From a virus, in IMG/VR virus record IMGVR_UViG_3300015275_000001, positions 1-47,802 of that record: a stretch of 47,802 nucleotides of DNA, one strand, 5' to 3'. Shown here one piece after another: positions 20,123 to 42,137 of the stretch (its first letter is position 1; every line of letters starts with the position of its first letter). The notes beneath the pieces were generated by a model. It did not search any database. It saw only the letters and a program-made list of their open reading frames with translations, and had not been told where the DNA came from. The position numbers and the translations under genes are program-made.

Positions 20123-20971
20123 CTAATCGAAGATCAAAACGGCTTGTTCGCGGCAGCCGCAGAAGGGAGGGCGTCCTGGCCTATCATCTGAGGCCACCTC
20201 CTGCGCGACGGTCTTGCCCTCCACAACGCGCCCGATCATGTCGGGATTGCTGGTGTAGAGGTTCCCGTCGCGTTCCTCGTGTCGGACGCGGGGATGGAGC
20301 TTGCGACTATGCTTCCACTCGTAGACCGATAGCCCGGCCTGAGTGCGGCGCTCAGCGTTCAAGGCGGCGGTTAGCTTGCTAAGCTGGTCGCTGGCGATCC
20401 TAGTCGACCGATCGCGCGCCAAGCCAGTGGCTTCCCGGATCTTAGCCGCCACTTCGCGCGCCGGGGTGCGATTGCGCAGGCCGTCGAATACTGCAGTACC
20501 GATCCGCTGGCGGGCCTGCGCGCTGACATCCTTAACCAGCGAGACGTTCCACTCGATCGCGGCCTCTAGCGGCTGCTGAACGTCATTCACCGACAGCATC
20601 GTGGTCAGGTCGACGTCAGACGCAGCAAGTGCGGCGCCGATCCACTTTCCTCGCTGCCAACGCTCTACCCGCAGAGCCCAATCACCCATCGCTGCGCGCA
20701 ACGACAGGACCAGCCGCAGAAATTCGTTCTCAGCCTGGTCGAGCTGCCCGTTGATGTCGCTGGCAGCGTCCGTCGTCAGCGCAGACAGGCTGCGCTGGTA
20801 CTCCGCTAGGATGGCGTCAGTGCGGCGCGTCCAGATGGCTACGGCTGGTGCGTAGACCCGCTGATAGAGGTTCGTCGCGAACGTGGCAGGGGGCTTGATG
20901 TCGCGGAACGTCACCGACTTGCGGCGTCGGTTTCGGCCGTTTCTGGCGAGGGCGGCTAGGTCGAAGCGCAC
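20123..20971 (-). CDS. Head morphogenesis protein (SPP1 gp7 / Mu F-like, 282 aa)
   Basis: ...VYEWKHSRKLHPRVRHEERDGNLY... matches the conserved C-terminal motif of the family. Follows the portal gene. GTG start. Confidence 0.75.
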   Translation of the reverse strand: MRFDLAALARNGRNRRRKSVTFRDIKPPATFATNLYQRVYAPAVAIWTRRTDAILAEYQRSLSALTTDAASDINGQLDQAENEFLRLVLSLRAAMGDWALRVERWQRGKWIGAALAASDVDLTTMLSVNDVQQPLEAAIEWNVSLVKDVSAQARQRIGTAVFDGLRNRTPAREVAAKIREATGLARDRSTRIASDQLSKLTAALNAERRTQAGLSVYEWKHSRKLHPRVRHEERDGNLYTSNPDMIGRVVEGKTVAQEVASDDRPGRPPFCGCREQAVLIFD

Positions 20972-30412: not shown

Positions 30413-30738
30413 GCCGCCACCCCGTCTTTACGCATCTGGTCACGGACCATGGCGATCCGCTCCTGACGGTTTCCATATTCCCGAAGCGATAGGTAGAGCG
30501 GCCGATACTCGGCCGGTACAGCGCTCAACAGGCTTGCAGTGCGCTTGGCGATAGAGTCCGGCGTATGCAGCCTTATACGCGCGGCTTCCCGCATTTCTGG
30601 CCGCAGTTTCGTGGCTTGAATTTTTGCTGCGTATTCCGGGTTCTGATGGATGCGCTTTGAGGCGCAAGACCGGCAAGGCTGACCAGCATAGCGAGGGCGG
30701 ACAATATGCTTGCCGCAGTCAGGACAGGATCCGCTCAT
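30409..30738 (-). CDS. Zinc-ribbon protein (109 aa)
   Basis: The internal ATG gives an ATGA overlap. CPDCG...CRSC. Confidence 0.5.
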   Translation of the reverse strand: MSGSCPDCGKHIVRPRYAGQPCRSCASKRIHQNPEYAAKIQATKLRPEMREAARIRLHTPDSIAKRTASLLSAVPAEYRPLYLSLREYGNRQERIAMVRDQMRKDGVAA

Positions 30739-31325
30739 GCCGCCCACCGCACGGCCCGGAAGCCCTTGGAGCGAGCACGCTCGATCAGCTCCGCATCCGT
30801 CATCCAGACGATGCCGCACATCCAGTATTTGCCCTTGGCGTTCTGGTTGCCGTTCAGGTCGCACCGGAACACCCGGCGATCGCGGCGCATGAAGTCAGCG
30901 GCTTGGCCAGCTTCCGACATGTCGCGCTGATAGCCTTCGGGCCGCACAGGTATGACGAAACTTTGCTTGTCGACCGTGCGGGGGAGGCGACGTGGAGGTG
31001 TGCGACGCTCTGCAATCTGCTCACCCCGCTTGCGACCGAGCCCAAGCGAATGCGCCCAGCGGCTGATCTTTGACGGACGGCACCGGTAATGCGCCGCCAA
31101 TTCGCGGTGCGTGTGATGCTTCCACATCTCCGCAAAGTCGTCTGGCGCTTCCTCAGTGACGCGGCCGGGCTTTGTCTGCCAGGTGCCGAAACCGATCCGT
31201 GAGGCCGCCAGTAGCGTGGCGCGGCGGGTCAGGCCTAGAGCGTCCGCTACTTGCTGCGCTGATGCGCCAGCCGCGACCAGATCGCGGGCCTTGGTAACGT
31301 TTTCGTCTGTCCAAGTGCGCTTCAT
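30735..31325 (-). CDS. GcrA-like HTH regulator (196 aa)
   Basis: The N-terminus WTDENVTKARDLVAAGASAQQVADALGLTRRATLLAASRIG parallels the GcrA N-terminal DNA-binding domain. The C-terminal part is not GcrA-like. Confidence 0.45.
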   Translation of the reverse strand: MKRTWTDENVTKARDLVAAGASAQQVADALGLTRRATLLAASRIGFGTWQTKPGRVTEEAPDDFAEMWKHHTHRELAAHYRCRPSKISRWAHSLGLGRKRGEQIAERRTPPRRLPRTVDKQSFVIPVRPEGYQRDMSEAGQAADFMRRDRRVFRCDLNGNQNAKGKYWMCGIVWMTDAELIERARSKGFRAVRWAA

Positions 31326-32028: not shown

Positions 32029-32223
32029 TCATTGCCCCCGTTCGGCTAGAGGCTGCCCATTATGGACAGACCGAGCAGCCCATTGAGTATCCGTGCAACC
32101 GCAGAGGCGATCACCACAGGTGGCGCAGGCGGTGTCCGTCGCTTGCGGCCCGCAGCCGCGTGCGATGGCGCGCTCCCAGCTGCCCGGCTCGCTGTCCGTG
32201 TCGACGGTGAGGGTCGGGCTCAT
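32029..32223 (-). CDS. Small Cys-rich protein (64 aa)
   Basis: ATGA overlap with the Cro-like stop. CATCGDRLCGC. Confidence 0.45.
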   Translation of the reverse strand: MSPTLTVDTDSEPGSWERAIARGCGPQATDTACATCGDRLCGCTDTQWAARSVHNGQPLAERGQ

Positions 32224-32432
32224 GCTGCGCGGCCTTTGCGTCCGTCAGACAAATGATCAGCGGTGATGCTCTTGCCTTGGCGCTTGGCGAGCTCGACCAA
32301 CGCAGCAACCCGCCAGGCGGGCACCGACCCAGTCCGCTTCCAGCCATGAACGGTGGTTGTGGGAGCGCCGATCTCTCGACCGATCGCCGTAGCGCCTCCA
32401 AGGGCGTCGATGATTTCAGCAGCCGTCATCAT
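32220..32432 (-). CDS. Cro-like HTH regulator (YdaS/Cro type, 70 aa), probably leaderless
   Basis: MMTAAEIIDALGGATAIGREIGAPTTTVHGWKRTGSVPAWRVAALVELA. The ATG lies 7-8 nt after a TATAGT -10 and has no SD. The ORF-track N-terminal extension would cross the operators. Confidence 0.7.
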   Translation of the reverse strand: MMTAAEIIDALGGATAIGREIGAPTTTVHGWKRTGSVPAWRVAALVELAKRQGKSITADHLSDGRKGRAA

Positions 32433-32439
32433 ACGGCAA

Positions 32440-32468
32440 ACTATACGTATTCCGCATGACCCATGCAA
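32440..32468 (-). promoter_or_regulatory. PR-like promoter TTGCAT-N17-TATAGT
   Basis: On the minus strand the -35 is at 32468-32463 and the -10 at 32445-32440. The spacer contains the operator TCATGCGGAATACGTAT. Confidence 0.6.
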
Positions 32469-32484
32469 TAGGAAATACGTATAG
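32441..32484. promoter_or_regulatory. OR-like operator pair (inverted CTATACGTATTCC ... GGAAATACGTATAG)
   Basis: Two ATACGTAT palindromic cores at 32443-32450 and 32475-32482. The 17-mer at 32443-32459 is identical (reverse complement) to 33152-33168. Confidence 0.65.
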
Positions 32485-32524
32485 CGTATTTGCGCCCTGC
32501 TCACCTTTGAGCGAGTGCGAATGC

Positions 32525-32944
32525 ATGCTTACGGCAACCGAAATTCTTCGTGTTCTTGACCAGCGGGGCGTCACACGCACCGAACTGGGAAAGGTGCTGG
32601 GCATCAGCCAGCCGAATGCCACCCGGCTATATAGCCCGGATCCGCGATCGCAAAAGCTGCGCGACCTGACCTATGAGGAAGGCCGCAAGCTTATCGAGCA
32701 TTACAAGCTTGAGGATAAGGCGGCACCGATGGCGCAGCCGGTATACCTTAATGAAGAACTGCTGGCGCCGATTGTGCAGGAAATAGCGAGACTTGCGCGG
32801 TCTGAGCGGGGGGAGTTGCCTGCTCGACCTCTCGCGTCAGCCTTGTCACGATACCTTCGGCAGATTGCAGAGCGTCCCGCCATTCATGCCAGCCAGGATG
32901 CGCTAGAGGCGGTCGCTCAAGCCGCAGTACCTCCACTTCACTAA
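32525..32944 (+). CDS. CI-like HTH repressor candidate (139 aa)
   Basis: MLTATEILRVLDQRGVTRTELGKVLGISQPNATRLY is an HTH motif. Divergent from the Cro-like gene and lower in GC. No peptidase S24-like C-terminal module is recognisable. Confidence 0.65.
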   Translation: MLTATEILRVLDQRGVTRTELGKVLGISQPNATRLYSPDPRSQKLRDLTYEEGRKLIEHYKLEDKAAPMAQPVYLNEELLAPIVQEIARLARSERGELPARPLASALSRYLRQIAERPAIHASQDALEAVAQAAVPPLH

Positions 32945-33053
32945 GCCACGCCGCGAGCATCAAGCGCTTAGCCGCGCAGACCGCAGAACAGGGGTCGCAG
33001 CCAGTCACGCAGGCGGGTTGGGGCAAAGCTGCGACTCGTCTTGTGTTCTCCAT
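32748..33053 (-). CDS. Candidate SOS-controlled leaderless ORF (101 aa), antisense to the 3' end of the repressor gene; may instead be a non-coding antisense RNA
   Basis: The ATG is exactly 7 nt after a CATATT -10. The first 36 codons are intergenic and carry CVTGCDPCSAVC. The remaining 65 codons overlap the CI-like gene. Confidence 0.3.
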   Translation of the reverse strand: MENTRRVAALPQPACVTGCDPCSAVCAAKRLMLAAWLSEVEVLRLERPPLAHPGWHEWRDALQSAEGIVTRLTREVEQATPPAQTAQVSLFPAQSAPAVLH

Positions 33054-33068
33054 GTTCTCAATATGTTC
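33054..33068. promoter_or_regulatory. LexA (SOS) box of alphaproteobacterial type, GTTC-N7-GTTC
   Basis: GTTCtcaatatGTTC. A third GTTC lies at 33045-33048. Confidence 0.6.
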
Positions 33069-33088
33069 TCATTGACGCAGATTATCAA
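33060..33088 (-). promoter_or_regulatory. Promoter TTGATA-N17-CATATT overlapped by the LexA box
   Basis: On the minus strand the -35 is at 33088-33083 and the -10 at 33065-33060. The predicted +1 is the ATG at 33053. Confidence 0.5.
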
Positions 33089-33111
33089 TCGAGGATTTTT
33101 CCTAGATTGAT

Positions 33112-33147
33112 CCGACTTAGGCCGGATCCGGGTCGATAATTTTTTTG
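33112..33147 (+). terminator. Possible terminator after the CI-like gene
   Basis: A CGAC..CCGGATCCGG..GTCG stem structure is followed by ATAATTTTTTT. Confidence 0.3.
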
Positions 33148-33151
33148 TCAT

Positions 33152-33196
33152 TCATGCGGAATACGTATTGACTATGCCATACGGTTTCCGCATTAT
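33152..33196 (+). promoter_or_regulatory. OL/PL-like region: operator inverted pair overlapping promoter TTGACT-N17-CATTAT
   Basis: ATGCGGAATACGTAT (33154-33168) and its imperfect inverse ATACGGTTTCCGCAT (33179-33193). The -35 is at 33168-33173 and the -10 at 33191-33196. Confidence 0.55.
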
Positions 33197-33219
33197 CACC
33201 TCCATCAACGGAGGTGGAC

Positions 33220-33435
33220 ATGCCCCAGGAAAATCAGACGGACTGGATCGAACATGACGGAGGACCGATGCCGGTCCCTGCCGACACGCTTGTTCTGACG
33301 CGCCGTCCGCACGCTACGGATAGGTTCCCTAAATTCGCTGGATGGTGGAACGGGGATGGCTCCGAGGATGACAGCAATTGGCTGCTGTCGGCCGGTGAAC
33401 ACCGCATCATCGCCTACCGCGTGGTGCAGGCATGA
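33220..33435 (+). CDS. Hypothetical protein (71 aa), first gene of rightward operon
   Basis: ATG has GGAGG 5 nt upstream. The ORF-track start is a GTG 6 nt earlier. Confidence 0.6.
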   Translation: MPQENQTDWIEHDGGPMPVPADTLVLTRRPHATDRFPKFAGWWNGDGSEDDSNWLLSAGEHRIIAYRVVQA

Positions 33436-41708: not shown

Positions 41709-42137
41709 ATGCCGGTGATTTATGAAGAAAAAGACCCGAAGCGAATTGAGGGTTGGGCAGGCCATATCCGGCGGGAACGCGGACCGAACGCATCGTATGG
41801 GGTCGTCTACTTTGTCGGACCGGCAAGCGGCCCCATCAAGATCGGCTTTACCCGCGACTTCTCATCCCGAATGGCAAAGCTGCAATCCATGTGCCCATTC
41901 CCCTTGGTGGTCTGGGCCGCGATCGAAGGTACGACGCTATGCGAGGCGGATCTGCACAAGGCGCACGCTGAGGATCGCCTGCATGGTGAGTGGTTCTCGC
42001 TGACACCGGCAATCGCGCACCTCATCAAGAGCCGCCGCGAACTGACTGGCCTGCGTGAACTCCAGTCGTATGCCGAGCCGATCCGCAAGGCGATCCGGCT
42101 TCTGACTACTCCTGAGCGCATGAGGAAAGTGGCATGA
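41709..42137 (+). CDS. T5orf172 / GIY-YIG-like domain protein (142 aa)
   Basis: YGVVYFVGPASGPIKIGFTRDFSSRMAKLQ...EADLHKAHAEDRLHGEWFSL matches the T5orf172/MUG113 pattern. ATG has a GAGG RBS. Confidence 0.7.
   Translation: MPVIYEEKDPKRIEGWAGHIRRERGPNASYGVVYFVGPASGPIKIGFTRDFSSRMAKLQSMCPFPLVVWAAIEGTTLCEADLHKAHAEDRLHGEWFSLTPAIAHLIKSRRELTGLRELQSYAEPIRKAIRLLTTPERMRKVA

Follow-up and report, generated by a model that had tools for sequence, protein, structure and literature searches.

A LexA-type box fronts a conserved small gene antisense to the repressor gene: a candidate SOS-controlled antirepressor in phages of Sphingomonadales

A small gene behind an SOS-type box runs into the repressor gene

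The viral DNA analysed here, record IMGVR_UViG_3300015275_000001 of IMG/VR, is 47,802 nt long, and we refer to this whole stretch as the window. Its immunity region contains a short minus-strand gene ('anti', below the small gene) that is preceded by a motif of the alphaproteobacterial SOS-box type, and that converges on and overlaps the gene of a CI-like repressor. Judging by its gene content, the window appears to be the whole genome of a temperate siphophage, and its relatives suggest a Sphingomonadales host, since the hosts named for them are all Sphingomonadales. The features at the locus are:

32525..32944, + strand: CI-like repressor gene, 139 amino acids (aa); N-terminal helix-turn-helix (HTH), linker, three-helix C-terminal domain, no S24 module
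32748..33053, - strand: small gene, 101 aa plus stop; N-terminal cluster of four cysteines (Cys4), two helices, unconstrained tail
32844..32944, - strand: part of the overlap under antisense-frame purifying selection (residues ~37-70), dNN/dNS 0.46-0.69
32976..33011, - strand: Cys4 codons, C15-x3-C19-x2-C22-x3-C26, in the part that does not overlap the repressor gene
33045..33048, - strand: third GTTC/GAAC, within codons 2-3 of the small gene (direct reading)
33054..33068, - strand: alphaproteobacterial-type LexA (SOS) box, reading GAACATATTGAGAAC and abutting the small-gene ATG (direct reading)
33060..33088, - strand: predicted sigma-70-type promoter TTGATA-N17-CATATT (consensus scan); its -10 lies within the box spacer and its predicted +1 is the A of the ATG
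33092..33103, no strand assigned: palindrome AGGAAAAATCCT (AGGA-W4-TCCT), centred at about -44.5 from the predicted start

The box, GTTCtcaatatGTTC at 33054-33068 (the + strand reads GTTCTCAATATGTTC), matches GTTC-N7-GTTC, or GAAC-N7-GAAC on the complementary strand, exactly. This direct repeat is the published SOS box of Caulobacter (PMC9578287). Read along the minus strand, the same DNA gives TTGATA (33088-33083), 17 nt, CATATT (33065-33060), GAGAAC and ATG (33053-33051). Position 33053, the first base of this start codon, is thus the seventh after the -10, and no GGAG-like Shine-Dalgarno (SD) sequence precedes it, so that the box spans the predicted promoter from its -10 to -1 and the small-gene mRNA is predicted to be leaderless. 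The first 36 codons of the open reading frame (ORF) lie outside the repressor ORF and contain CVTGCDPCSAVC (C-VTG-C-DP-C-SAV-C), while its last 197 nt (32748-32944) are antisense to the repressor gene and cover exactly the region that encodes the C-terminal domain of the repressor. An earlier note, made from the sequence without database searches, had described the box with its third GTTC, the promoter overlapping it, the leaderless start and the 101-codon ORF with its antisense portion, and direct reading of the DNA bore out each of these.

The box is conserved at the small-gene start in related phages

Loci related to that of the window are numbered L001 to L018 here. Repressors of this family are uncommon, with 6 clusters in 5.8 billion proteins, and contigs carrying members of the family gave L001 (98% identical), L002 (70%), L003-L005 (63%) and L006 (50%), all of which have a minus-strand ORF of 100-102 aa with its stop at the same aligned position. 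A scan of genome contigs with the repressor gave no match. Scanning with an alignment of the small protein added four loci, namely L008 and L009 (both IMG/VR; L009 and L004 are one contig), L010 (a Sphingomonas metagenome-assembled genome) and L011 (Sphingomonas oligophenolica JCM 12082), and loci L012-L016 are contigs of members found in a profile search with the small protein. Finally, tblastn located the small gene in two more records, those of VSN-002, an isolated Sphingopyxis phage with a published genome announcement (PMC9302152), and of a replicon of Caenibius sp. WL:

L017 2513-2794 (MZ127829.1): small gene in VSN-002, absent from the annotation
L018 ~1491-1790 (NZ_CP081845.1): small gene in Caenibius sp. 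WL p1, absent from the listed genes

The latter, a 38-kb circular replicon designated 'plasmid' in RefSeq, looks like a phage or phage-plasmid. Both MZ127829 and the PLSDB table of NZ_CP081845, which is incomplete, list the opposite-strand HTH gene only, and in VSN-002 this convergent repressor (gene_11) is labelled simply 'hypothetical protein'. We tabulated 13 lineages, which together with Caenibius p1 (L018) make 14, drawn from Sphingomonas, Sphingopyxis and Caenibius elements plus metagenomes.

In the window, GTTC-N7-GTTC occurs three times where 1.17 occurrences are expected, and at least three are found in 9 of 100 shuffles. By itself the box is thus statistically unremarkable, and its significance comes from conservation in relatives. 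An exact GAAC-N7-GAAC stands 0-35 nt upstream of the small-gene ATG in 12 of the 13 tabulated lineages, and Caenibius p1 also carries the box, about 28 nt upstream of the ATG, for a total of 13/14. The tabulated loci amount to 224 kb of strand sequence and contain 16 boxes of this kind, 12 of them at the small-gene site. The spacers of these twelve boxes are all different and their flanks differ too, with the tetramers kept; both half-sites are mostly GAACA. In several over-extended gene calls, the peptide E(H/Q)xxNM before the true Met is a translation of GAAC-N7-GAAC-ATG. The third GAAC recurs at the same +5 spacing in L014 and with an N6 spacing in L003, and is not general among the relatives. 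The earlier note had held that an absence of box and ORF from close relatives would speak against its reading; as the counts above show, the box is widespread among them, and the ORF is conserved as well.

The other two matches in the window, at 20261-20275 (+) and 41775-41789 (-), are probably due to chance, because they lie in coding DNA, have GC-rich spacers and are without the TGTTC extension. We also observed an array of GAACAGCG repeats in Sphingomonas oligophenolica (L011 2180-2290), about 200 nt upstream of the small gene, some of them with GAAC-N7-GAAC spacing; these could be iterons, arm-type sites or extra LexA sites.

The small gene encodes a conserved Cys4 protein

Several lines of evidence show that the small ORF is a real, conserved protein gene. 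In an exhaustive phmmer search of 1.84 billion representatives, 23 representative homologues reached E<=1e-3, the best of them 2.8e-13, and homologues of the protein fall into about 30 clusters. When the 101-aa sequence was used in a word-indexed protein search, no match came up, so that these homologues surfaced only in the exhaustive search. C15, C19, C22 and C26 (window numbering) are invariant in an 18-sequence family alignment, and among the loci the fourth Cys is absent in L002 only. The ORF is 93-146 aa long, mostly 98-105, across the 13 tabulated lineages. In the Cys region that does not overlap the repressor gene, pairwise differences in the minus frame are most frequent at codon position 3, then 1, then 2 (83, 53 and 40 of 138), and conserved Cys, Lys, Arg and Ala codons vary synonymously. 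It is because of this coding-type substitution pattern, the synonymous change within conserved codons, the homologues and the invariant Cys residues that we take the ORF to encode a protein.

The small protein had no family match in Pfam, PHROGs, NCBIfam or PADLOC. A profile search of the PDB gave nothing below E=0.39, and a fold search of the PDB with the model of the protein returned generic helical hairpins only (E>2). In this model, made with AlphaFold2 (AF2) from the single sequence, a conserved (Q/R)PP..HPGW loop connects helices at residues 24-45 and 55-79, both ends of the protein (the N-terminus and residues 80-101) are disordered, and no membrane segment is predicted. The Cys4 cluster is probably metal-binding. 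We propose that the functional part of the protein consists of residues ~15-70, that is, of a Cys4 knuckle and a helical hairpin. As a separate observation, the small ORF nearly always ends in Leu-His or Leu-Gln before the stop codon (32748-32750 in the window), opposite the start of the repressor C-terminal domain ((L/P)(N/S)xE(E/T)L), and the position of this stop is constant despite the lack of selection on residues 71-101.

Both frames of the overlap are under purifying selection

A convergent HTH repressor ORF overlaps the 3' part of the small gene in all 14 lineages, no lineage has the small gene without the repressor gene, and this convergent linkage persists even where the N-terminal domain of the repressor differs. 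In each of the 13 tabulated lineages the overlap is approximately 150-300 nt long and has a single frame relation, in which position 1 of the small gene lies opposite position 1 of the repressor, 2 opposite 3, and 3 opposite 2 (in L016 and L017 the overlap was assigned by hand). We considered hydropathic complementarity between sense and antisense peptides of the two proteins and rejected it, as the frames are offset (a1-c1, a2-c3, a3-c2) and not codon-on-codon.

When synonymous repressor codons were resampled, the antisense frame stayed open by chance with P=0.22-0.52 per lineage, and openness of this frame alone is thus weak evidence. After raw codon-position counts in the overlap (four lineages), we used a test in the manner of OLGenie, in which sites are classed by the effect of a change, nonsynonymous (N) or synonymous (S), in both frames, with the non-overlapped N-terminal half of the repressor gene as a control. 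The results for the small-gene frame were:

Whole overlap, 6 lineages: dNN/dNS 0.67 (0.52-0.87, bootstrap)
First half of the overlap, residues ~37-68, 6 lineages: dNN/dNS 0.46 (0.29-0.68)
Tail of the overlap, 6 lineages: dNN/dNS 0.95, not significant
Overlap up to residue 70, 11 lineages: dNN/dNS 0.69 (0.54-0.88)
After residue 70, 11 lineages: dNN/dNS 1.06
Control, non-overlapped N-terminal half of the repressor gene, imaginary antisense frame in the same register: dNN/dNS 1.10 (0.92-1.38)

The repressor frame is constrained as well (dNN/dSN 0.63). Purifying selection therefore acts on both frames as far as about residue 70 of the small protein, and this limit is an addition to the earlier reading of the locus. 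A comparison of the window with L011 illustrates the pattern: the small protein keeps PPLAHPGW at 8/8 residues, and the repressor substitutions opposite it (Q to P, E to K, A to V) are all synonymous in the small gene.

The repressor has no visible means of autocleavage

The earlier note had seen no recognizable S24 autocleavage module in the CI-like protein, and this assessment was upheld. In Pfam the 139-aa repressor, whose homologues are 50-96% identical to it, matches HTH entries only, and weakly, with no match to Peptidase_S24, and its sequence contains no Ala-Gly dipeptide. An AF2 model based on a 7-sequence alignment is free of beta structure and shows an HTH domain at residues 1-60 and a C-terminal domain of three helices at 77-134, joined by a disordered linker (61-76); precomputed Pfam entries for the repressors of the relatives are HTH_3/HTH_31 only. 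Because there is no S24 match and no Ala-Gly, and because the 65-aa C-terminal domain is modelled as all-helical, the repressor is, to judge from sequence and model, incapable of autocleavage. Gene callers give its homologues 162-176 aa by using an upstream ATG (32456 in the window, so that 32456-32524 would be added to the gene) that lies inside the operator region; the 139-aa start at 32525 appears to match the alignment better than 32456.

Promoter geometry and an upstream palindrome recur in the relatives

A consensus scan of 32200-33400 found two promoter-like sites only, the one in front of the small gene and one on the + strand at 33168-33196, and no terminator-like site on either strand of this interval. 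A -10-like hexamer made up of the last C of the first GAAC and five spacer bases recurs in relatives (CATATT in the window, CATAAT in L017, CAGAAT in L012 and CAAAAT in L010). Further upstream, T(A/C)GACA stands at -35/-36 from the ATG in L006 and L008, and TAGACA at -34 from the box-adjacent ATG in L015. The simplest reading of these patterns is that the downstream edge of the box would be the transcription start and that LexA would cover -12 to -1.

The box abuts an in-frame ATG without an SD in 6 of the 13 tabulated lineages (the window, L002, L006, L008, L014 and L016). GAAC-ATG is also present in L015, where that ATG is out of frame with the ORF. Five lineages (L010, L011, L012, L013 and L017) have a leader of 13-23 nt, and L018 has a longer one. 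Each of these leadered lineages has GGAG, GGGAG or GGAGG 5-12 nt before the ATG (in L018, GGAG 6 nt before it). The leaderless geometry thus recurs, and an SD-bearing leader replaces it exactly where the ATG of a relative is displaced.

There is a single copy of the palindrome AGGA-W4-TCCT, often followed by TAGACATGT(A/T)GGAT, in window/L001 and in each of six further loci, in every case upstream of the box:

L008 2436-2447
L010 1048-1059
L011 2412-2423
L015 1441-1452
L016 2591-2602
L018 1388-1399

It lies 17-24 nt from the box (67 nt in Caenibius p1), with its centre at approximately -38 to -45 from the predicted start. The palindrome may be a site for a dimeric factor or an UP-like element. 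Because it is kept in phages with differing operators, it suggests a second regulator at the small-gene promoter. A conserved upstream motif serving as a fixed -35 was also considered. T(A/C)GACA in L006, L008 and L015 would fit this description, and the palindrome was excluded from it, given a distance to the box that ranges from 17 to 67 nt.

A LexA-derepressed antirepressor as the probable main effector of induction

Functionally, the locus most likely belongs to the LexA-controlled antirepressor theme of phage 186 and the Gifsy/Fels phages. In a lysogen, LexA on the box would keep the small gene silent. DNA damage would lead to RecA-stimulated cleavage of LexA and so free the promoter, and a leaderless mRNA starting at the ATG at 33053 would then give a protein of ~100 aa with functional residues ~15-70. 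This protein, acting as an antirepressor, would inactivate the non-cleavable repressor, the C-terminal domain of which is read from the complementary strand of the small gene's own DNA, and would so send the prophage into lytic growth. The same transcription would run antisense through the repressor gene and converge on PRM-type transcripts, and the resulting interference could reinforce the switch. Since the Cro-like gene that begins the lytic operon lies on the same strand and no terminator was detected, read-through into that operon is also possible, and would yield lytic transcripts independently of the repressor-controlled promoter. This third output is a further addition to the earlier reading. 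We put the probability that the small protein is the main effector of induction, as a LexA-derepressed antirepressor, at roughly 0.6. The box, the ORF, the leaderless geometry and the lack of an S24 module, on which the interpretation in the earlier note was built, all held in silico; the antirepressor role, antisense action, induction, LexA binding, transcription start, metal binding and the repressor as target are what we infer from them.

A number of points weigh against this interpretation. Gene position is all that connects the small protein to the repressor. Searches of Pfam, PHROGs, PADLOC, NCBIfam, PDB sequences and PDB folds turned up nothing that resembles a known antirepressor in sequence or fold, so that the protein stands outside the known antirepressor families and would be a functional analogue at best. 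Its model has moderate confidence only (predicted local distance difference test score, pLDDT, 66.8, from a single sequence). The selection estimator is our own simplified version, which uses p-distances and non-independent pairs, and the last ~30 codons (residues 71-101) are under no antisense-frame selection (dNN/dNS 0.95-1.06) and look like unconstrained read-through. LexA binding is deduced from the class-wide consensus, and a literature search for the SOS boxes of Sphingomonadales brought up nothing relevant. The quality of -35 and -10 is poor in some relatives, and in L013 the box may lie downstream of the transcription start. Finally, in the one exceptional lineage, L003/L004/L005 (L003 4560-4630), the proximal GAAC is replaced by GGCT. 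The distal GAAC is kept there 17 nt upstream, with another GAAC just after the ATG, and the small ORF is retained at 102 aa; SOS control may have been lost or rewired in this lineage.

If RNA rather than protein were the effector, the transcript would collide or pair with repressor transcripts, or read into the Cro-like operon, or both, and the ORF would be secondary. The convergence and the shared strand with the Cro-like operon, kept in every lineage examined, would fit such a scheme, as would the lack of terminator-like sites on either strand of the scanned interval and the unconstrained ORF tail. However, the non-overlapping 5' part is conserved as protein and not as nucleotides, with synonymous change in Cys codons and more differences at codon position 3 than at 1 and 2; the antisense frame is under purifying selection within the overlap; and the leadered relatives keep an SD at the right distance. 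Because of this protein-level conservation, antisense-frame selection and SD retention, the protein appears to matter, and an RNA as the effector in its stead is quite unlikely, although RNA effects may well be additive rather than exclusive. It is unlikely, too, if a little less so, that the gene is SOS-controlled cargo with a host-directed function instead of a switch, such as a division inhibitor, a toxin, an exclusion or repair modulator, or a redox or metal sensor. The lack of homology to antirepressors and a Cys4 motif that fits many roles are consistent with cargo, and SOS regulons of alphaproteobacterial hosts include small proteins of other function (PMC4211646). Against it stand the constant company of the repressor gene in 14 lineages and the overlap with its C-terminal domain, the lack of any other visible route by which SOS could inactivate the repressor, and a predicted product without a membrane segment that is modelled as a soluble helical hairpin.

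Two further explanations concern the box itself. Lambda-type CII proteins bind direct repeats, and the repeats could be the site of such a phage regulator and not of host LexA. A CII gene is annotated in VSN-002, and the conserved AGGA-W4-TCCT shows that other factors probably act at the small-gene promoter. We consider this highly improbable, as the repeats correspond exactly to the SOS box of the host class in phages with differing regulators and operators, and as they lie over the -10/+1, the position of a repressor, and do not flank the -35, which is the position of CII. The idea of a fortuitous box beside a long antisense ORF, a common sight in GC-rich DNA, draws on the lack of enrichment of the bare motif in the window and on the readiness with which the antisense frame stays open, but is effectively refuted by the conservation of box, ATG, Cys motif, ORF length and frame across 14 lineages, by the coding-type substitutions and by the number of homologue clusters.

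The antirepressor interpretation can be carried further, to a cassette in which an SOS-gated Cys4 metalloprotein antirepressor is encoded antisense to the very repressor domain that it targets, behind a promoter with three outputs and with the palindrome as a second input (an AND gate). We offer this more elaborate scheme tentatively, as a whole that is more doubtful than its core. If it were true, immunity specificity and antidote would be inseparable by recombination, and one promoter would yield antirepressor, antisense interference and lytic read-through together.

Prophage induction in Alphaproteobacteria is poorly understood, and the module represents a concrete, testable switch for phages of Sphingomonadales, with two tractable carriers in the isolated phage VSN-002 and the prophage of Sphingomonas oligophenolica JCM 12082. 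It also adds a protein family missed by annotation (MZ127829; the PLSDB table of NZ_CP081845; Pfam, PHROGs, NCBIfam and PADLOC). Moreover, it is a clean case of a conserved sense/antisense pair of overlapping genes in which selection is measurable in both frames, and its leaderless and SD-bearing homologues constitute a natural experiment on translation initiation.

Comparison with known induction systems

LexA-controlled small antirepressors are an established answer to non-cleavable repressors (PMC3121763; PMC9437464). In coliphage 186 and its Fels-2/PSP3 homologues there is likewise a LexA operator over the promoter of a small phage gene, tum, a CI that RecA does not cause to be cleaved, and an indirect SOS induction; Tum and the small protein have no sequence similarity, and the operator is the E. 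coli palindrome for Tum and the alphaproteobacterial direct repeat here. The tum gene is far from cI in coliphage 186, whereas the small gene converges on and overlaps the repressor gene. Tum is also fused or linked to a DinI-like part (PMC3121763), where the small protein has a Cys4 cluster. In Salmonella, the LexA-controlled small proteins GfoA/GftA/GfhA/FsoA of Gifsy-1/-2/-3 and Fels-1 inactivate short repressors that are uncleaved during induction, and the LexA-regulated Gifsy operon dinI-antirepressor-irsA lies 1.3 kb downstream of replication genes (PMC3121763). This operon is not adjacent to the repressor gene and involves no gene overlap, unlike the small gene, and no homology was found between the two.

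If the small-gene transcript reads into the Cro-like operon, the window would also resemble GIL01 P1 and CTXphi PrstA, in which host LexA is likewise placed inside the phage switch region. In these systems LexA is reported to act at the main early promoter, with the co-factor gp7 or beside RstR (PMC4551915; PMC3121763), whereas the promoter here is a separate one, downstream of and convergent with the repressor gene, and fronts a conserved protein gene. The Qtip and TF-smORF modules of linear plasmid-like Vibrio phages are reported to answer quorum-sensing or other transcription factors independently of SOS (PMC10432266). Like the small gene, they place a small, fast-evolving protein that would inactivate cI under a dedicated sensory promoter; in contrast to it, they are not known to overlap cI or to be under LexA control.

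A different lead comes from the Cys4 cluster. The zinc-binding anti-sigma (ZAS) motif consists of H-x3-C-x2-C ahead of a helical protein-binding module, and the small protein has the same x3/x2 ligand spacing before its predicted helical module. There is no detectable homology; in the small protein a Cys would take the place of the first ligand, with another Cys, the fourth, at x3, and the gene belongs to a phage immunity region. Taken together, the direct-repeat operator, the host clade, the Cys4 cluster, the alternation of leaderless and SD-bearing starts and the antisense overlap set the locus apart from known LexA-antirepressor systems. We found no description of a LexA-antirepressor circuit in alphaproteobacterial or Sphingomonadales phages in the searchable literature, the coverage of which is incomplete, so that this is absence of evidence only.

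Layout of the immunity region and the genome

The immunity region has the layout of lambda, with OR (in the stretch 32433-32524), PRM-cI and an OL/PL that drives genes for recombination and integration, in this order; the box and small ORF are placed between the cI stop and OL/PL, and are directed back into cI. The remaining features of this region are:

32220..32432, - strand: Cro-like gene (carph-isopro/YdaS-type), first of the lytic operon; NCBIfam NF046037 (E=2.6e-16), PHROG 8008
32443..32487, no strand assigned: OR-like operator region between the Cro-like and CI-like genes, with an exact GCGGAATACGTAT at 32443-32455 and degenerate copies
33156..33196, + strand: OL/PL-like region, promoter of the recombination/integrase operon, with operator half-sites flanking the promoter

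The repressor gene is divergent from the Cro-like gene, and the two share operators. The 13-mer GCGGAATACGTAT is exact at two places, 32443-32455 and 33156-33168, and an inverted partner with 2 mismatches at 33179-33191 forms with the latter a pair that flanks the -35 of the + strand promoter TTGACT-N17-CATTAT (33168-33196, consensus scan). No CI operator was found at the small-gene promoter, and control of the small gene would therefore be separate from immunity. The Cro-like gene shares the strand of the small gene and lies 316 nt beyond the stop of the latter. It starts (ATG 32432) with TTGCAT-N17-TATAGT, 7 nt and ATG, without an SD. The earlier note was thus right to ascribe to it the geometry of the small gene, and its mRNA is probably leaderless also. 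A comparison of the DNA of the immunity region with GenBank phages found no similar sequence.

Leftwards from 32432, the minus strand encodes the Cro-like protein, a GcrA-like protein, a primase, a primase/helicase, terminase, portal, protease, major capsid protein, tape measure and tail fibre, and the + strand carries, in this order, the HTH gene of the CI-like repressor, small genes, an exonuclease and an integrase. A lysozyme gene is located close to the right end of the window, in which we found no tRNAs and no evident host flank. The GcrA-like N-terminal region belongs to a protein of the early lytic operon (30735-31325, - strand; Pfam PF07750, E=6e-5, below the curated cut-off) and hints at a link to the alphaproteobacterial cell-cycle regulator.

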